Source of the DNA: Patescibacteria group bacterium
GTDB taxonomy: Bacteria > Patescibacteriota > Kazan-3B-28
Length of the DNA stretch: 64,000 nt
Direction: 5' to 3'
Assembly: GCA_028717565.1 (NCBI GenBank)
Contig: JAQUNP010000001.1
Location: forward strand, 26,736-90,735
Each line of letters starts with the position of its first letter. The first letter of the stretch is position 1. Position numbers and translations under genes: made by a program. A model generated the notes under the pieces. That model was not told where the DNA came from, made no database searches, and saw only the letters and a program-made list of their open reading frames with translations. Shown one piece after another: positions 1,705 to 46,840 of the stretch.

Positions 1705-2040
1705 CGTTCCCTCCTGTGTTTAGGACTATGACTTCTTGATTATACCACCTGTTTCAACTACACTTCAGATGCAATCCGAAAGTTCCTCTTGAATTGGTGT
1801 CCCCTGGTCTGGGTACTGCCATAGCCCGCTCCAAACAGGGGGCGAGGAAACGAGATGGGCCGTGCCCCACCGACAACTAGGCGACGTCGTCTGGTTGCGG
1901 ACGTGTGCACCTCAAGTACCGTCCTGGAACTTGGGCATCCTGGTTTGTTGGAGTCACACGTGGTAGGATTGCTGCTTTCACCCCCGCTGGTTCATTTTTG
2001 AGGCCTACGAGGCCTTAAGAATTCCAACGGGGGTCCTTTC

Positions 2041-3000
2041 TTATAGCAGGTGCGCTTTTAGCAAACGCTCAACATCTTGAGCTGATACGGTCTGCATGAG
2101 CTTAAGACGCAGTTCTTTAGCACCCTTAAATCCGCTGATATATGCTTTAAAATGTTTCTTCATCAAATCAAAGGGCTTGAATCTTCCCGTAGTTTTTTCG
2201 TAAAGCTTGGCATGAATAACTAGAGTGCAAAAAAGTTCTCGTTGGGAAATGGGTTTGGGCTGAAAAAACCAGGGGTTGCCAAAAGTGGCTCGTCCGACCA
2301 TAACACCGTCCAGTGCATACTGTTTGGCTTTGGCCTCGGCTTCGACTACAGTTTGGACGTCGCCATTACCCAAAATGAGTGGCAACTGACGCGTGGAATA
2401 TTTCTTACGCAACTTTTTTACCACCCGGCCCAGCATGGCCCAGTCGGCCGGAACCTTACTCATCTCTCTTTTAGTCCGCGCATGTACGATAATGGCTACG
2501 GGCTTGGCCTTAATCAGCGTATTTATCCACGGCTCTAGATCGGCTTGTGTATAGCCAGTACGTATTTTCACGCTGACTGGTAACTCCCCTGCTCCCCGTT
2601 TGGTCTGAGCAACAATCTCTTGGGCCAGAGCGGGCTGGTTGAAAAGTGCTGCGCCACTACCAGCTTGGCAAATAGATTTTTCCGGACAACCCATGTTGAT
2701 GTCGATACCATCGAACCCAAGCTTACGAATAAGTTGGGCGGCTGTGAAAAAGGTATCCGGATTAGACCCAAAGAGCTGTGCCACGATGGGTCGCTGGATT
2801 TGAGAAAAGCGCAAGTTTTTGACTAGAGCTTTGCGACCTTGTGAATTAGCCAAACCATCGCAAGAAACAAACTCTGTCCACATGACATCTGGTTTACCAA
2901 GCTTGGCAAAAAGTTCTCGATACGCGAAATCGGTGACATCCGCCATGGGAGCTAGTGCCAGTATTGGTTTTTTTAGTTTGCCCCAAAAACCTCTTTGCAT
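2041..3000 (-). CDS. dus: tRNA-dihydrouridine synthase
   Basis: LAPMADVTDFAYRELF..., DINMGCP and a conserved Cys region typical of the Dus family. 319 aa. Confidence 0.9.
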   Translation of the reverse strand: MQRGFWGKLKKPILALAPMADVTDFAYRELFAKLGKPDVMWTEFVSCDGLANSQGRKALVKNLRFSQIQRPIVAQLFGSNPDTFFTAAQLIRKLGFDGIDINMGCPEKSICQAGSGAALFNQPALAQEIVAQTKRGAGELPVSVKIRTGYTQADLEPWINTLIKAKPVAIIVHARTKREMSKVPADWAMLGRVVKKLRKKYSTRQLPLILGNGDVQTVVEAEAKAKQYALDGVMVGRATFGNPWFFQPKPISQRELFCTLVIHAKLYEKTTGRFKPFDLMKKHFKAYISGFKGAKELRLKLMQTVSAQDVERLLKAHLL

Positions 3001-3002
3001 AC

Positions 3003-4340
3003 CTATTTGTTGCTACTGTGACGCAGAATAATTTTTATGGGAGTTCCCTCTAAGGGCCAAATCTCGCGAATCTTATTTTCCAGATACCTAACATACGAAA
3101 AGTGGATGGCTTCCGGCCGACTCACTTTGAGTTCGATGGTGGGAGGGTTGGTATCAATCTGGTGTGAAAAATAGATTTTGGGCGATATGCGACGACCAAC
3201 TGGTGGACGTTCGGCTACCGCTTTGGCCACCAAGCGATTGAGATCTTTGGTGGGAATTTTGAAATTTCGTGTAGTCCAAATACTTATAATTTGGTCTAAA
3301 ACTTTATTGGCTCGCTGACCAGTCAGACCCGAGATATAAACTCGTGGCATCCAAGAAGCAAAACTATATTTTGTATCTAAATATGCGTCAAACTCAGCCG
3401 TGATCTTGTGAGTTTTCTCAATTAGATCCCACTTGTTCACAACCAGTAGCGCACCTTTTAAACTTTCTGTAATCATCTGCAAAATATGCATATCCTGTGC
3501 AATCACACCCTCGTGGGCTTCGGTAACCAGTAGACAGATGTCCGCTTCTTGAATAGATTTTAAAACCCGAAGTGAACTAAATTTTTCTATGCCCCGTTCA
3601 ATTTTACCGCGACGACGGAGACCAGCTGTATCGACAAATTCGATAGTGTGTCCGGCGTATTCGATGGATTCATTAATGGCGTCTCGAGTTGTGCCAGCTT
3701 CGGCGCTAACCACACTCCGCTGTTTGCCAATCAACCTGTTAAAAAGCGTGGATTTGCCTACATTGGGGCGACCCAAAATAGCAACTCGGATAGTTACTGC
3801 TGTACTCGTAGGCGCTAGGGCAGATGGTTGGCGAGCTGGTAGGCGATCGAGAGCCGTCACCACTTCGTCTAGCACATCCCCAATCCCCTTGCCAGTCAGT
3901 CCAGAGGTGAGATGAATATTTTTAAATCCCAGTTTGTGAAATTCGGTTAGATCCTGATTGCTTTTTTGTTTGTCGGTTTTATTGATGAGTAAAATTACTG
4001 GCTTGTTGAGTTTGCGGATTAATTCGGCAGCTTTGATATCCTCACCATTTAAGCCCTCGCGCGCATTGACCATAAATAAAATGACATCCGCGGCTTTCAC
4101 CGCCAATTTGGTTTGTACTAAAACGTCCGAAGCAATTTGGCTTTTGTCGCCCAGCTCTATCCCCGCTGTGTCCGCTACCATGAACGTGTGACGTTGCCAC
4201 GTTACGGTACCGAACAAAACATCTCGGGTGGTACCAGGAGTTTCTGACAAAATTGCCCGCCTCTCTCCGACCAAGCGATTGAAGAGAGTAGATTTGCCCA
4301 CATTGGGGCGACCAACGATGGCGACTAAGTGATGTGTCAT
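3003..4340 (-). CDS. der: ribosome-biogenesis GTPase Der (EngA)
   Basis: Two tandem GTPase domains (GRPNVGKSTLFNRL occurs twice) plus a KH-like C-terminus. 445 aa. Confidence 0.95.
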   Translation of the reverse strand: MTHHLVAIVGRPNVGKSTLFNRLVGERRAILSETPGTTRDVLFGTVTWQRHTFMVADTAGIELGDKSQIASDVLVQTKLAVKAADVILFMVNAREGLNGEDIKAAELIRKLNKPVILLINKTDKQKSNQDLTEFHKLGFKNIHLTSGLTGKGIGDVLDEVVTALDRLPARQPSALAPTSTAVTIRVAILGRPNVGKSTLFNRLIGKQRSVVSAEAGTTRDAINESIEYAGHTIEFVDTAGLRRRGKIERGIEKFSSLRVLKSIQEADICLLVTEAHEGVIAQDMHILQMITESLKGALLVVNKWDLIEKTHKITAEFDAYLDTKYSFASWMPRVYISGLTGQRANKVLDQIISIWTTRNFKIPTKDLNRLVAKAVAERPPVGRRISPKIYFSHQIDTNPPTIELKVSRPEAIHFSYVRYLENKIREIWPLEGTPIKIILRHSSNK

Positions 4341-4346
4341 AAATGT

Positions 4347-4355
4347 ATTGTATCA
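4347..4355 (-). promoter_or_regulatory. extended -10 box TGATACAAT, 6 nt upstream of the der ATG (leaderless architecture)
   Basis: Reverse complement of 4341-4355 reads TGATACAAT-ACATTT, followed by the ATG at 4340. Confidence 0.5.
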
Positions 4356-4364
4356 GCGCAGCAT

Positions 4365-4976
4365 AAGAAAAGGGGCCGCCCCGAGGGGCGGCCCTGTTGG
4401 TACCTGACGGTACCGAGGGGCGAGGCTAGAGAACCTGGACCTTTCGGTCGAGATAACCTAGTCCTCGCAAAGCAAACGAGAGAAGGGGGCAAGATGGGGA
4501 CACCATCATCCGTTGCCTTTTGACAGTTCCACCCTGGGAACGGTCTATTCTCTCAGCCAATACGGTGGCTACCTGGAACTTTGAGGGCGAGGTCTGGAGA
4601 GATCTCTCTTTTTAGGGAGAGGGTTCTCTGACCAAACACTGGCCAACCAAGTTGCAGACAGCGATCTCCTGCGGATCCTGGCCAGACGCAGTAGACCCGA
4701 GGGCCGCTTGGCGACCCAGGTGAGCAAAAATTGCTCCCAAGGCCGTTAATCCTCTTGCTAGTGCTCCGACCGGCAAGGCGGGGATTCTTTGGCAATCTTG
4801 ACGATCACCGCCCCTCCGAGTACCGGCGCGGAAAGTCATACGTAAGACCTTGATTCAGATCTTTAGCGTCCCGTACAACTGGAACCTTACTAGCTTTCGG
4901 CTCCGTAGAGAGCCCATTTTGAGCAAGCCCAAAACAAGCTCACTACGAAACCGAAACAAACCATTTTTTGAAGGTA
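4365..4976 (-). ncRNA. candidate ~610-nt GC-rich non-coding transcript (class unknown; a degraded gene is not excluded)
   Basis: Bracketed by the minus-strand promoter TTGACA-18-TATTAA (5012-4983) and the terminator at 4395-4372. It contains many local hairpins. Only low-complexity overlapping ORFs without an RBS are present. Confidence 0.35.
4372..4395 (-). terminator. GC-rich intrinsic terminator hairpin
   Basis: GGGCCGCC(CC)/(GG)GGCGGCCC stem. On the minus strand it is followed by CUUUUCUUAU. It sits just upstream of the der promoter. Confidence 0.6.
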
Positions 4977-4982
4977 AGTCCA

Positions 4983-5012
4983 TTAATAGCAAACCGGCGG
5001 GACGTGTGTCAA
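4983..5012 (-). promoter_or_regulatory. sigma70-type promoter TTGACA-18nt-TATTAA (minus strand)
   Basis: Reverse complement of 5007-5012 is TTGACA, and of 4983-4988 is TATTAA. Confidence 0.45.
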
Positions 5013-5114
5013 CAGGTTTTTTTAAAAAAGTCCCTAAAAGTATAAAAAAGCCGCTTTGGGAGCGGAAAGATTTTTTGAGTTGTCAATAATGGGTCCGTGC
5101 TATAAAATGTAACC

Positions 5115-5300
5115 ATGTTTACAATCAGTAACATCGTGGTTTAGGAGCGCGAGGCAAGCTCTGCCAAAGTCCGAAGGGACAAGCTCAAAGCCCGGTTCTC
5201 AGAGCCGGCCACGTAAAATAAGTGCTTTGAGCGAACACTGAACCTTCCCCATCTTTGATGAGGATGCCAGGAGGGCGGCCCACACCGCCCTTTCCTTTGT
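5115..5300 (+). ncRNA. candidate small RNA (alternatively the 3' UTR of the carboxypeptidase gene on the other strand)
   Basis: Plus-strand TTGTCA (5080-5085), 17 nt, TAAAAT (5103-5108). Internal 9-bp helix GCTCAAAGC/GCTTTGAGC. Terminal hairpin GGGCGG-CCCACA-CCGCCC (5273-5290) followed by TTTCCTTTGT. Confidence 0.3.
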
Positions 5301-6233
5301 CTATAACGTTTCGACCCAGGTGAAACTCTTCAGTGCCCAGTCCAAGGCCTTGCTAGCTTCACTGAAGCGGTCTGGACTATCCAACAAAACGACTATCACC
5401 TTCTGGCCGGCACTGCCAACGGCAGCTGCTACGAGCGACTCCCCGGCCTCCTCGGTGGTACCGGTTTTCACCCCCACCACATTATCGTATTGCTTGAGCA
5501 GCTGGTTCGTGGTAGTAAGGTTGTGTTTAAACTTGCCCGTCACATCCCAAACCGTTGCCCCAGGAGTGGCTACGATCTCTGCGAATACCGGGTTGCTCAT
5601 CGCCACTTGAGTAAGTTTGGCAATGTCTAGGGCTGTGGAGTAATGATTCTCGTGATCAAACCCATCGGCATTAGCGAAATGAGTGTCGGTCAAACCCAGA
5701 GCGGTGGCTTTGGCATTCATGAGTTGAACAAATTGATTGGGGTCCCCAGTGGTGACGTAAGAGAACGTACGCGCGGCATCGTTAGCGGATTGGATCAAGA
5801 GACCTTTTAGCAAATTTAGTACAGCAATTTTTTCATCGGCATATAAATACATCTTTGACCCGTTTTTTCCTTCCAAGGCCTTGGCTGGCACCGTGACAAC
5901 CGTATCTAGGCGGTCACCATAAACTTCCAGCGCGACCACCGCTGTCATGATTTTGGTAATCGATGCCATGGGTAGTTTAGCGGTGGCATTTTTGCTAAGC
6001 AGGATCTTGCCGCTATCGTAGTCGGAAATAATAGCCGACTGAGCCGAAATTTTGATGTCTTCGGCTGACGGATTTTTTATGGGACCAATGAGTTGGTTTA
6101 GGTTTTTAGCTAGATTTTCTACCGAATAATGCGGATCTAAGATATTGAAGGTATGAAAAATCTTGGCGTTTACGTCCGTAAACGACCCCGTTAAAAACTG
6201 CAAGATAGCTAGCAAAACAGCAAGAGCGTTCAT
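5301..6233 (-). CDS. D-alanyl-D-alanine carboxypeptidase (S11 serine peptidase, PBP5-like)
   Basis: N-terminal signal/anchor and an SxxK motif (ASITKIMTA). Overall pattern resembles low-MW PBPs. Confidence 0.85.
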   Translation of the reverse strand: MNALAVLLAILQFLTGSFTDVNAKIFHTFNILDPHYSVENLAKNLNQLIGPIKNPSAEDIKISAQSAIISDYDSGKILLSKNATAKLPMASITKIMTAVVALEVYGDRLDTVVTVPAKALEGKNGSKMYLYADEKIAVLNLLKGLLIQSANDAARTFSYVTTGDPNQFVQLMNAKATALGLTDTHFANADGFDHENHYSTALDIAKLTQVAMSNPVFAEIVATPGATVWDVTGKFKHNLTTTNQLLKQYDNVVGVKTGTTEEAGESLVAAAVGSAGQKVIVVLLDSPDRFSEASKALDWALKSFTWVETL

Positions 6234-10145: not shown

Positions 10146-10993
10146 TACTTTTTGACTAGACGTCTTAAATGTTTAATGTCAGTAATATCTCGCTTCACGT
10201 CCCCCGTACGTGGTGTTTCTAGTATAAACGGAATATTTTTTAAACGTGGGTGATTCACTAGATTTTTAAAACCGGCTTCGCCGATAAAACCTTCGCCGAT
10301 TTTAGCATGGCGATCTTTTTTCGAACCAAGCTCAAACCTAGCGTCATTGGCGTGAATAAACTCCAAGTGTTTCAAGCCGATCAGCCGATCAAACTTTTTT
10401 AAAAGGTCATTGATATCAACTTTGGTTCTAACATCAACACCAGACACAAACAAATGACACGTGTCCAAACAAAAGCCAAACCGCTGCTTGTGTTTCAGGC
10501 CTTTCCAAATTGCCCCCAGCTCCTCGATGGTATCGCCAATTCGGTTACCAGCTCCAGCATCGTTTTCAATAATCAATTTCACAGGCCACTTGTCACGCGT
10601 TAACTCCTCTAGTCGATTGAGCGTCTGGATAGTGTGGGTGATGCCTTCGGCGTTGCTGTTTTGATTGCTACCACAATGAAAGTTGTAGCCGTCTGCCCCA
10701 ATCCCATAGGCGATTTTGGCCTCGTCTTTGAGCTTTTTTAAACTCATGTTGCGCAAAGAGGCCTTGTGACTAGCCGGGTTGGGCAGATAGGCCGCGTGCA
10801 CTAACACTTTTTTTACTTTGGATTTTTTCCAGGCCTCCTTGAACCTCTGGGCCACTTTAACGTCAGGCAGGGGTGTAGTCCATATTTGCGGACTCCCGAC
10901 AAAAATCTGAATAACATCGCACTGCAAGGCCTCGGCCTCAACAAAGGCCCTAGAAAGTCCGCCGCTGGCTGACACATGATAGCCAAATAGCAT
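10145..10993 (-). CDS. nfo: deoxyribonuclease IV (AP endonuclease family 2)
   Basis: HAAYLPN, IENDAG, LDTCHLF and HANDA motifs typical of endonuclease IV. Confidence 0.9.
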   Translation of the reverse strand: MLFGYHVSASGGLSRAFVEAEALQCDVIQIFVGSPQIWTTPLPDVKVAQRFKEAWKKSKVKKVLVHAAYLPNPASHKASLRNMSLKKLKDEAKIAYGIGADGYNFHCGSNQNSNAEGITHTIQTLNRLEELTRDKWPVKLIIENDAGAGNRIGDTIEELGAIWKGLKHKQRFGFCLDTCHLFVSGVDVRTKVDINDLLKKFDRLIGLKHLEFIHANDARFELGSKKDRHAKIGEGFIGEAGFKNLVNHPRLKNIPFILETPRTGDVKRDITDIKHLRRLVKK

Positions 10994-19895: not shown

Positions 19896-19926
19896 ACCAA
19901 ACTCATCGCTCGGTTAATATTGATAC

Positions 19927-19957
19927 AAAAACCCTCCTGTAATCAGGAGGGTTTTTA
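19927..19957. terminator. bidirectional intrinsic terminator
   Basis: AAAAACCCTCCTG-TAAT-CAGGAGGGTTTTT lies between convergent genes. Confidence 0.75.
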
Positions 19958-19976
19958 GTTCTCGAGTTAGGTGGGT

Positions 19977-20174
19977 TTACTTCTTCTTCAAAATTGGCAA
20001 ACCTGTCCTGGCACTTTCAATAACCTTACGATCGGCTGGAAGCGCATCCAGGGCACCTGGTTTAATCTCCTTAGCAAAGTAATAAATCATCTGTTTGCGT
20101 CCACCCTTTAAGGTGACTTCTTTGCCGTGCAAGTAGTATGTATTCCCCTTGCTATTAGTGTGACTAAATGCCAT
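19977..20174 (-). CDS. hypothetical small basic protein
   Basis: 65-aa ORF (KGGRKQMIYYFAKE...). No function recognised. Confidence 0.5.
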   Translation of the reverse strand: MAFSHTNSKGNTYYLHGKEVTLKGGRKQMIYYFAKEIKPGALDALPADRKVIESARTGLPILKKK

Positions 20175-20244
20175 AACACTCCTAAAGTTAAGCCAATATA
20201 TTGATACTTCTATTTTATAGGAGAACCTAATCTGTTGTCCAGAT

Positions 20245-20575
20245 ATAAAAAGAGAAGGCCTCGGGGGGGAACCCCGAGGCCGGGACGAGTAAACAGGAAC
20301 GAAGGTTGGTTAGACCCTCAAGAGATAATCCATATAGGCGCCTCCAGCTGAAAGAGCGATGGTGATGTCGTCTTTACGCTGACCAGCTCGAGATAGGGTG
20401 GATTTTCGTCTGTGTTGACGAACCTATCTTCAGGGGCGGTCGACCCTAGCCGCTGGACCACCCCCTAGGGGCTGGCTGCCCAAAGCAGCTGGATACATTT
20501 CTGGTCATGGTCATCACCTTACCTTTGCCCCAAGGGCTTGATGTTTACGTGCACTTCCCGTCTTGTCAGGAATGC
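20245..20575 (-). ncRNA. candidate ~330-nt GC-rich RNA or long peroxiredoxin 3' UTR
   Basis: Extended -10 box TGTTATAAT (reverse complement of 20582-20590) lies right after the peroxiredoxin stop. Strong terminator GGCCTCGGGG/CCCCGAGGCC (20257-20281) has a U-tail on minus. Only ~22-aa ORFs are present. Confidence 0.3.
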
Positions 20576-20604
20576 ACCTGTATTATAACAATTTTTAGGG
20601 CTCT

Positions 20605-45575: not shown

Positions 45576-46840
45576 CTCCGCCTAGTTGTTTGCCATAACG
45601 CCTCTCGTCGACAAAGCTTAGCAACATCTTTTGGATGCGCTAACAAATGCTCAATGATTCCTTCTAAGAAACGAGCCCCTTTAAAGATGAGGGTCTCCTC
45701 TCCTTGCAGATGCGCCTGGATATAGTCCAGGGCGTTGCGAGGATGCAAAAAAGATATTACATTGTCAGACCCAATTTGTTTGACTAACGGCGTGTACACC
45801 GTTCTCCTCAAACGTGGGCCAACTAAAATAATTTTCTGGGGGCTGTTCGCCAAAATGGGATCGATCAGACCTAAGTGATCTGCCGTTTCGCTCTGGCCTT
45901 GTTCTATTAAATCGCCAAGAATAATCCACTTTCGCCTTGTCTTCAATTTTGATGTCATTTCGAGAATGGCGCGTGTGGAGGCCAAGTTGGCATTGTAGCT
46001 ACTATCAATAATGGTAGTTTTTTTAACTCCCTGTAAAATTGAGCTCCGACTCGGTGGCAGTTCAAATTTAGCCATACCTGGCGCTGCCAAACGAAGAATC
46101 TGTGCTGCATAAATTGTCGCCATGAGGCTATAACCAAATACCTTGGGCAACAGGTATGAAAAATTGTAACGTTTTCTAAGATACGAAAAGCTCGTACCAG
46201 TTGGGCTGATTGTGTAGTCAGAAATATCTTTTAGAGATAGTAAATGTGGCTGGGCTTGGGTGCGACTCAGCTGATTCATGATCTCGGGATTATCCCGATT
46301 GACAATGACATGGTTGGTGGTGGCTGCCAAAAAATGTCCAAATTCCCAGGCAATGGCGGATTCAACTTTCTGAAAACGCCGAGAGCGACCCACTAATCTA
46401 TCAAAATTCTGCGTATGAGTGCGATCACTACTAAGCCAAATAGTCATCCACGGCTGTAAAAATCCTGCCAAGAACTGTCCTTCGTAAGGGCGATCGCAAT
46501 CGGCCTCCACCACATATATTTTTTGCGGATAGGGCGATTTGAAGGCTCGGCCAGGAGTTTGGAAAAAAAGTTTTATCCATTCAGTTTTTTTGAAGGTAGT
46601 CCGCTTTAAGCCCAAGATATCGAATGGGATGCCAAAAGCACTATTAGCCCTATCCGAAAAATGTGCCTGATTACCCAAGACACTTTTGAGCAAATGTAGT
46701 GTGGAGGTTTTACCGTTAGAACCAGTAACTACAATAATCTGCGGGTGCCAACGTTGCAGCTGAATATTGGCAAAAAACCGGAAATAGCTGGCCACCCCGA
46801 AATACAAACGAGATTTAAGCTTACGGATGATTGAAATCAT
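45563..46840 (-). CDS. Mur-ligase family protein (MurF-like, short N-terminus)
   Basis: P-loop VVTGSNGKTST near residue 40 and IIDSSYNAN motif as in MurF. Confidence 0.8.
   Translation of the reverse strand: MISIIRKLKSRLYFGVASYFRFFANIQLQRWHPQIIVVTGSNGKTSTLHLLKSVLGNQAHFSDRANSAFGIPFDILGLKRTTFKKTEWIKLFFQTPGRAFKSPYPQKIYVVEADCDRPYEGQFLAGFLQPWMTIWLSSDRTHTQNFDRLVGRSRRFQKVESAIAWEFGHFLAATTNHVIVNRDNPEIMNQLSRTQAQPHLLSLKDISDYTISPTGTSFSYLRKRYNFSYLLPKVFGYSLMATIYAAQILRLAAPGMAKFELPPSRSSILQGVKKTTIIDSSYNANLASTRAILEMTSKLKTRRKWIILGDLIEQGQSETADHLGLIDPILANSPQKIILVGPRLRRTVYTPLVKQIGSDNVISFLHPRNALDYIQAHLQGEETLIFKGARFLEGIIEHLLAHPKDVAKLCRREALWQTTRRRWEL

Follow-up and report, generated by a model that had tools for sequence, protein, structure and literature searches.

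A 64,000-nt stretch of a Patescibacteria genome (Candidate Phyla Radiation, CPR), hereafter the window, appears to carry an independent gene for a structured non-coding RNA (ncRNA) between a carboxypeptidase gene and der. We consider it probable, with moderate confidence, that the product (618 nt here and 294-777 nt in relatives) is a new, clade-restricted and accessory ncRNA that acts in trans, and we provisionally call it der-upstream RNA. The sequence holds what is expected of a stand-alone ncRNA gene, namely a predicted promoter and terminator that are conserved in homologues, together with compensatory substitutions, the latter in a single 5′ hairpin (P1) only. In kind, the element belongs with the orphan stand-alone structured ncRNAs, among which it forms a new family and is a member of no described one. 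The genome lies near 'candidate division Kazan': its carboxypeptidase shows 100% identity to a protein from an NCBI metagenome-assembled genome labelled 'Patescibacteria group bacterium', and relatives bear the Kazan label.

The predicted transcription unit

The unit lies on the minus strand at positions 4365-5012, within a 960-nt gap (5300-4341) between the gene for an S11 D-Ala-D-Ala carboxypeptidase (6233-5301, minus strand) and der (4340-3003, minus strand), both assigned by Pfam. A preliminary description of this DNA had called the gap unusually long and the unit GC-rich, and both observations hold. According to a crude gene call, which split the gap at a spurious 80-aa open reading frame (ORF), coding density in the window is ~91% and the median gap is 44 nt; the 960-nt gap is the longest, and the next longest measures 709 nt. 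The GC content of the unit is 0.55 vs. 0.46 in der and in the window, and in all six members of the family described below the unit is 4.5-13 points richer in GC than der and the locus.

The promoter of the preliminary description, TTGACA-18-TATTAA at 5012-4983 on the minus strand, is present, and its layout is conserved in the homologues. Of the sigma-70 type, it comprises a -35 element (TTGACA, 5012-5007), an 18-nt spacer and TATTAA (4988-4983). The sequence fails a strict consensus scan, the T at position 6 being missing, but a TG at 4991-4990 precedes the -10 element and yields an extended -10 of the form TGc-TATTAA (4991-4983). The layout TTGAC-N16-TG[C/T]TA is found in five of the six members; the sixth, at locus L029 (related loci are cited by L numbers), has TTGAC-N15-TGTTA. 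Upstream of the -35 element lies a T/A-rich block, TACTTTTAGGGACTTTTTTA (5023-5042, minus strand). The window and L001 agree at 19 of its 20 positions while the surroundings have diverged, and the block may serve as an UP-like element or bind a regulator. Transcription would start at about 4979-4975.

Roughly 610 nt downstream of the promoter, close to the ~600 nt originally proposed for a strong terminator, a terminator scan recovered an intrinsic terminator with nine G-C pairs and no others in its stem and a CUCG loop, GGGCCGCCCC-UCGG-GGGCGGCCC, followed by a CUUUUCUUAU tail (stem-loop 4394-4373; 4363-4394 with tail; minus strand). The L001 unit closes with a comparable intrinsic terminator, and the terminators of L007, L008, L027 and L029 were read from the sequence. 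On the other side of the unit, the scan identified a two-way intrinsic terminator, CCGCUCCCAAAGCGG (5051-5065), with U runs on both strands, which is predicted to close transcription from the carboxypeptidase side and so to insulate the RNA gene upstream. A hairpin at 5983-6001 of L001, upstream of its RNA promoter, is the counterpart of this terminator.

A promoter for der follows directly after the terminator of the RNA gene, again as first described. It is an extended -10 element, TGaTACAAT (4347-4355, minus strand), which is abutted by the terminator tail and ends 6 nt before the ATG at 4340, implying that der mRNA is leaderless. An extended -10 (TGnTAnnnT) placed 6 nt before the der ATG, with no Shine-Dalgarno (SD) sequence, occurs in the window and L029, which have the RNA, and also in L028, which lacks it. 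The corresponding element of L007 and L008 is a -10-like GATACT that has no TG motif and stops 6 nt short of the ATG. Four tandem TTGATAC heptads precede the der ATG in these two loci (865-895 and 4240-4275, respectively), giving TTGATA-17-GATACT, and L025 has a degenerate version of them. In many genes of the window (e.g., those starting at 4340 and 7626), the start codon is preceded at a distance of ~6 nt by a -10-like hexamer, in many cases one with TG, and SD sequences are found in very few, which points to leaderless mRNAs as the rule here. Since the genome seems to be largely leaderless and the der AUG would be internal and without an SD sequence on a longer transcript, read-through from the RNA promoter probably would not lead to translation of der. 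With der under its own promoter and terminators on both sides, the unit is therefore best described as an insulated, independent gene and not as a der leader.

Structure and conservation of the predicted RNA

The conserved portion of the RNA comprises only its 5′ ~90 nt, made up of an unpaired leader and P1, and nhmmer and MAFFT align the ends alone. The leader, CUUACCUUCAAAAAAUGGUUUG (4957-4978, minus strand; consensus yACCUUnAAAA...UGAUUU), has the form (C)UYACCUUnAAAA...UGAUUU in all members but L029, and is left unpaired by RNAalifold. P1 (4895-4956, minus strand) consists of a 14-bp lower stem, a 1x1 mismatch, a 14-bp upper stem and a CUUG loop. An alignment of homologues with a covariation check had been proposed in the preliminary description and, with five further lineages in hand, P1 clearly covaries: across the 19 aligned pairs of the six-sequence alignment, 93.9% of the cells are paired and 11 pairs have changed on both sides. 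None of 500 column shuffles reached these values, pairing fell to 33-58% when the partners were slid by 1-3 columns, and RNAalifold independently predicted the identical 19 pairs. The 1x1 pyrimidine mismatch keeps a fixed height in the stem (U.U in the window and L001; C.A in L007, L008 and L027), several G.U/U.G wobbles are conserved, and the apical loop is CUUG(C) in five of the six members and GCAA in L029.

Between P1 and the 3′ end lies a GC-rich, multi-helix and hypervariable body (4416-4894, minus strand), which includes an irregular hairpin, GCGAGGACUAG...CUAGCCUCGC (4468-4420). A short penultimate hairpin, GGUACC-GUCA-GGUACC (4399-4414, minus strand), stands just before the terminator. 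Both hairpins, as well as a GACC-GAAA-GGUC helix, had been picked out by the preliminary description, and all three are in the minimum-free-energy fold. A short hairpin followed by a terminator closes every member, although the hairpin sequence, compared by eye, differs. The body measures 148-630 nt, has no k-mers common to four or more members and aligns poorly with MAFFT G-INS-i; likewise, a search of the six members for k-mer anchors outside the two ends found none. From P1 to the terminator, the six members have no stretch of sequence in common, although this region may still hold a purely structural core. A two-sequence RNAalifold consensus of the L007 and L008 bodies was over-fitted and was not relied on.

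Folding energies favor the sense strand throughout. The whole sense RNA of the window folds at -276 kcal/mol, with a z-score of -10.9 (20 shuffles) or -7.1 (40 shuffles), vs. -5.5 and -4.9, respectively, for its antisense. Over the six members, the z-score of the whole sense RNA ranges from -4.7 to -7.1 and is always better than that of the antisense strand, which folds worse because of the G.U/U.G wobbles in P1. When bodies alone were compared with dinucleotide shuffles, the window (RNA nt 90-583, positions 4893-4400, penultimate hairpin included) gave -5.8 for sense vs. -3.7 for antisense, and the six members gave -2.0 to -5.8 vs. +0.5 to -3.7, with sense better in every one. The preliminary description had likened the unit to the large, ornate bacterial RNAs. 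The size of several hundred nucleotides stands, but ornateness of the kind seen in OLE, GOLLD and ROOL does not, with only ~90 nt conserved at the 5′ end and a hypervariable body.

Distribution in related lineages

Homologues were found by following the neighboring proteins into public assemblies; quality is uneven among the assemblies that supplied the six sequences. Five further lineages of the clade carry a unit of 294-777 nt directly upstream of der and on the same strand: L001 (777 nt; der identity to the window, 77%), L007 (504 nt; 70%), L008, which equals L009 (563 nt; 70%), L027 (653 nt; 66%) and L029 (294 nt; 65%). In L004/5, L010/11, L026 and L028, where the unit is absent, the spacing between the carboxypeptidase gene and der is 35-164 nt. 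Carriers and non-carriers are interleaved within one clade in a neighbor-joining tree of Der, and the outgroup is without the unit, a pattern suggestive of a single gain and then two or more losses, or relocations.

Two loci deserve separate mention. At 2900-3000 of L028, which has no RNA, a hairpin (ACACGCTCTAGAGCGTGT) is followed by ATGCTATTAAT, which resembles the -10 block of the RNA promoter, then by a T-run and the der promoter, and the arrangement looks like the scar of a clean deletion of the RNA gene. At 1-258 of L025, on a truncated contig, the sequence upstream of der is rich in GC and hairpins, shows no obvious terminator and carries a GAUGCC motif in common with the 3′ regions of L007 and L008; possibly, this is a member in which the RNA continues into der.

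A covariance model built from leader and P1, designated R1, recovers the six members at 58-86 bits (85.9 bits in the window) and, over 174 kb comprising the 64-kb window and 14 loci, finds no second copies beyond these six. Pattern scans of larger collections were similarly unproductive. A strict 5′ motif had no match in a collection of genome contigs; a pattern of promoter, leader and CGGT matched only the known L009 plus chance sites in metagenome contigs and five chance sites from unrelated phyla in genome contigs; and a relaxed pattern had one chance match in viral contigs. One pattern match, at 10700-10900 (minus strand) of the unrelated metagenome contig L012, comprises a promoter-like site, CUCACCUU and GC-rich hairpins; it has no P1, no der nearby and no R1 match, and is probably unrelated. 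The pattern scans also missed the window's own genome and the L001 contig, indicating that the clade is thinly sampled in these collections and that the scans are a poor guide to how widely the family occurs; its spread is probably underestimated. As judged from the six lineages found, the RNA appears confined to one small family-level clade of Kazan-like Patescibacteria.

Searches for known families and coding potential

The preliminary description could match the unit to no known RNA class, and Rfam gave the same answer. At gathering score, Rfam 15 (4227 models, including OLE, GOLLD, ROOL, HEARO, raiA, RNase P, 6S, SRP, tmRNA, group I/II introns and riboswitches) returned only three tRNAs, all located elsewhere in the window. 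With the threshold relaxed to E<=10, region 4250-5400 gave terminator look-alikes only, at the level of chance (11-20 bits vs. cut-offs of 41-111); the five related loci gave no match at E<=5, and ARAGORN detected no tmRNA in the window. 6S RNA was considered and rejected, given that the conserved helix is a local 5′ hairpin, that the folds have no conserved end-to-end stem and that the length varies from 294 to 777 nt, vs. about 180-200 nt for 6S RNA.

The ORFs of the unit are at most 80 aa long and, as had been reported, mutually overlapping, and they have no Pfam match. In addition, a six-frame Pfam scan at E<=1 was empty, and tblastn similarity between members did not extend beyond the ends conserved at the nucleotide level, where it occurred in every frame and on either strand, with no frame preference. 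The possibility of a decayed protein gene, raised in the preliminary description, was thus examined in two ways with no coding signal, and we rejected a pseudogene on the basis of the empty six-frame scan and the lack of frame-specific similarity. A CRISPR- or TIGR-type guide array was rejected as well, there being no tandem repeats and only short direct repeats at chance level. Comparison with phages and plasmids by blastn gave no match, and no terminal repeats were found.

Within the window, the best stretches complementary or identical to the RNA were at chance level. A 13-nt match to the leader (46586-46598) lies in the same sense inside a minus-strand gene and is not a target. Our search of the literature found no paper on a der- or engA-associated RNA or on a large ncRNA in CPR bacteria.

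Locus context and other structured elements

Upstream of the carboxypeptidase gene, the minus strand encodes a class II tRNA synthetase of the D/K/N type (7626-6238) and, downstream of der, dus (3000-2041), both assigned by Pfam. The RNA unit takes up only 4365-5012 of the 960-nt gap, and 5013-5300 holds other features. Among these is a possible second small unit on the plus strand (5080-5300), with a promoter-like TTGTCA-17-TAAAAT (5080-5108) and a terminator (5270-5293) that bracket ~185 nt with a fold z-score of -2.9. The stretch is missing from L001 and has no Rfam match; one possibility is a small RNA that converges on the carboxypeptidase gene, another the 3′ untranslated region of that gene. 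The segments 4429-4500 and 5191-5255 have three short inverted matches, which do not fall in the collinear order of a duplex and were taken to be due to chance. In L008/L009, and in this lineage only, an extra 231-aa ORF without a Pfam match lies on the opposite strand between the carboxypeptidase and RNA genes (2715-3410), indicating that the site tolerates insertions.

Elsewhere in the window, a second orphan GC-rich unit (20225-20585, minus strand) occupies part of the 709-nt gap (19896-20604). A -10-like box (TGTTATAAT) is accompanied by a folded stretch of ~330 nt (z = -3.9), and GGCCUCGGGG...CCCCGAGGCC with a run of U residues forms a strong terminator; Rfam gave no match. It also contains an SD-like AAGGUGAU followed by an ORF of 20-22 codons, and AAGGUAAG, an exact 8-nt complement of CUUACCUU in the leader; chance alone would produce about two matches of this kind. 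Downstream of dus, a 309-nt gap (1732-2040, minus strand) with a GC content of 0.54 and a long-range stem, CCCCCGUUGG...CCAGCGGGGG, precedes the promoter (TGGTATAAT) and SD sequence of the next gene and may be another structured element.

Discussion

In its overall design, der-upstream RNA is closest to OLE, GOLLD, ROOL and raiA, the Rfam classes from the Breaker laboratory, which likewise stand alone from promoter to terminator, are enriched in GC, fold into many helices and measure several hundred nucleotides; they too were found as unusually long GC-rich intergenic regions in AT-leaning genomes. Those RNAs differ in having an elaborate core that is retained from phylum to phylum; in the present case, conservation is limited to ~90 nt at the 5′ end, with no Rfam match. 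Moreover, the present RNA belongs to one narrow CPR clade with losses and lacks the link to prophages or tRNAs seen in GOLLD and ROOL. A comparison that we draw from general knowledge is with RNAIII of Staphylococcus and the enterobacterial small RNAs with a 5′ seed, which are also independent genes with an intrinsic terminator and an unpaired 5′ end as their best-conserved part. Unlike these, der-upstream RNA has no target complementarity above chance and no conserved embedded ORF, and an SD-poor, largely leaderless genome leaves few substrates for blocking of ribosome-binding sites. For the same reason, we give less weight to the leader as a mimic of the anti-SD sequence, the 5′ half of which it resembles, or as a sponge for SD sequences, as few genes here bear an SD sequence. 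RNA polymerase-binding RNAs of the 6S/Ms1 type are similarly stand-alone, structured, putatively abundant and variable in sequence between lineages; by comparison, the RNA described here has no closing stem between its 5′ and 3′ ends, no central bubble and no Rfam 6S match, and is 1.5-4 times larger.

The leader also invites comparison with rrn and lambda nut-type leaders. Its ACCUUUAAAA(G/A) resembles, by eye, ~8 of 11 positions of the E. coli boxA consensus, CUCUUUAACAA, from which that of the clade may differ. As in those leaders, a hairpin follows 8-10 nt after the boxA-like sequence, a near-perfect duplex of 25-30 bp is an RNase III-type substrate, and protection from Rho could be of use to a long RNA that is not translated. 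The boxA likeness and the length of P1 would suggest rRNA-like antitermination and processing. The differences are that L029 is without the motif and that neither rRNA nor tRNA follows.

Several other explanations for the unit have to be weighed. It could be a cis-acting leader, attenuator or insulator of der, whose terminator sets the amount of transcription reaching der or which shields the der promoter. In every one of the six lineages the unit directly precedes der and shares its strand, as such a role would predict, and the same holds for the contact between the terminator tail and the der -10 in the window; the ATGCTATTAAT block retained in L028 without the RNA, and the 258 nt upstream of der in L025 with no obvious terminator, can be read in the same way. 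The synteny of the carboxypeptidase gene and der is ancestral, however, so that position alone needs no functional link, and relatives manage with a gap of 35-164 nt. The terminators are canonical and strong, with no conserved alternative anti-terminator pairing seen among the six sequences, and most genes look leaderless, so that read-through should translate der poorly. In addition, der has its own -10 element 6 nt before the ATG and no SD sequence, with and without the RNA, unlike a gene that depends on read-through from a riboswitch or cis-regulatory leader, and we regard a cis-acting role of any kind as unlikely. We find it harder still to see in the unit a decaying remnant without function, be it a former protein gene, the insertion of a mobile element or neutral transcribed junk. 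A remnant would account for a hypervariable body whose length varies 2.6-fold, for patchy presence with several apparent losses, and for a gap that holds a 231-aa ORF in L008/L009 and a lineage-specific extra segment in the window. Yet neutral sequence would not keep a near-consensus promoter, a terminator, GC enrichment and sense-specific folding across der identities of 64-83%, nor a covarying 25-30-bp hairpin with conserved G.U pairs across the same range; the empty six-frame Pfam scan, the lack of frame-specific similarity between members, and the absence of phage, plasmid or viral matches and of terminal repeats likewise argue against it.

A highly diverged housekeeping RNA (RNase P, 6S, SRP or tmRNA), missed by the Rfam models, seems very improbable. 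Divergent sequences are common in CPR bacteria, an abundant RNA is suggested by the strength of the promoter, and the window has no other copy of any of these four. Against this stand the lack of an Rfam match at permissive E-values in the window and at the five loci, the negative ARAGORN search for tmRNA, and the absence, by eye, of the universal RNase P and SRP motifs. Furthermore, P1 is local and the 5′ and 3′ ends do not pair, unlike those of RNase P, 6S and tmRNA, and an essential RNA would neither vanish from the syntenic site in close relatives nor vary from 294 to 777 nt without a conserved core. Type I toxins are encoded by long and strongly folded mRNAs, many of them specific to a lineage, and the unit could be the mRNA of a small protein, such as a toxin-like hydrophobic peptide, with a long structured 3′ region. 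The window has a hydrophobic ORF of 24 codons, MVCFGFVVSLFWACSKWALYGAES, with its AUG at 4964 and overlapping P1, and in L007 an open frame of 108 codons starts in the leader. The 24-codon ORF has no counterpart in the five homologues, the frame lacking a start in L001 and stopping after nine codons in L008 and two in L027, and 2-nt indels shift the frame between members, in keeping with the lack of frame preference in tblastn. Given also that there is no SD sequence, that the AUG is not at the predicted +1 and that no antisense partner promoter is conserved, we rejected this explanation, to which we attach hardly any probability.

The interpretation as an independent ncRNA gene acting in trans has weaknesses of its own. 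Transcription, the RNA ends and abundance are all read from sequence. Covariation is demonstrable, in the six lineages, for P1 only, and no consensus structure of the body was derived. GC content and local hairpins, and not a defined architecture, may account in part for how strongly the body folds. The complementarity search within the window reached chance level only and yielded no partner or target. At least four close relatives (L004/5, L010/11, L026 and L028) are without the unit at the site, which means that the RNA is either dispensable or relocated there, and L029 has no ACCUU leader and is only 294 nt long, indicating that the leader and a long body can both be dispensed with.

With these points in mind, the independent ncRNA gene remains our preferred reading, and a tentative mechanism can be outlined. 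The RNA would act in trans, with the leader and P1, including the fixed mismatch, the conserved G.U wobbles and the CUUG loop, as its putative functional core. A fixed mismatch and wobbles are typical of a specific recognition site, and we therefore read the 5′ module as one; it would most likely be a recognition platform for a protein or RNA partner, a protein being the most plausible. The long GC-rich body may be a fast-evolving scaffold or stabilizer, kept folded by compensatory change and not by conservation of sequence. We call the RNA accessory since several close relatives lack it at the site. In the tiny genomes of CPR bacteria, a non-coding, GC-enriched and folded RNA of 300-800 nt under a near-consensus promoter is costly, which suggests a function. 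A bolder idea, which we offer as a long shot, is that der-upstream RNA is the first of a CPR-specific class of ribonucleoprotein RNAs, of a new design, in which a small invariant 5′ handle recruits a dedicated partner and the body, unconstrained or under diversifying selection, might be a decoy, guide or scaffold for interaction with the host, with boxA antitermination and RNase III processing at P1 as possible additions. If this were true, the body would carry lineage-specific information or a lineage-specific surface in episymbiotic bacteria.

The practical value of the RNA is limited at present, with six lineages, repeated absence in relatives and no functional handle, and the apparent predominance of leaderless mRNAs in the genome may appeal to a wider readership than the RNA does. 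To judge from Rfam and the literature searched, very few lineage-specific ncRNAs have been described for CPR bacteria. The combination of a small conserved 5′ module with a hypervariable folded body is an unusual evolutionary pattern, and it could point to a new RNA-protein partnership.

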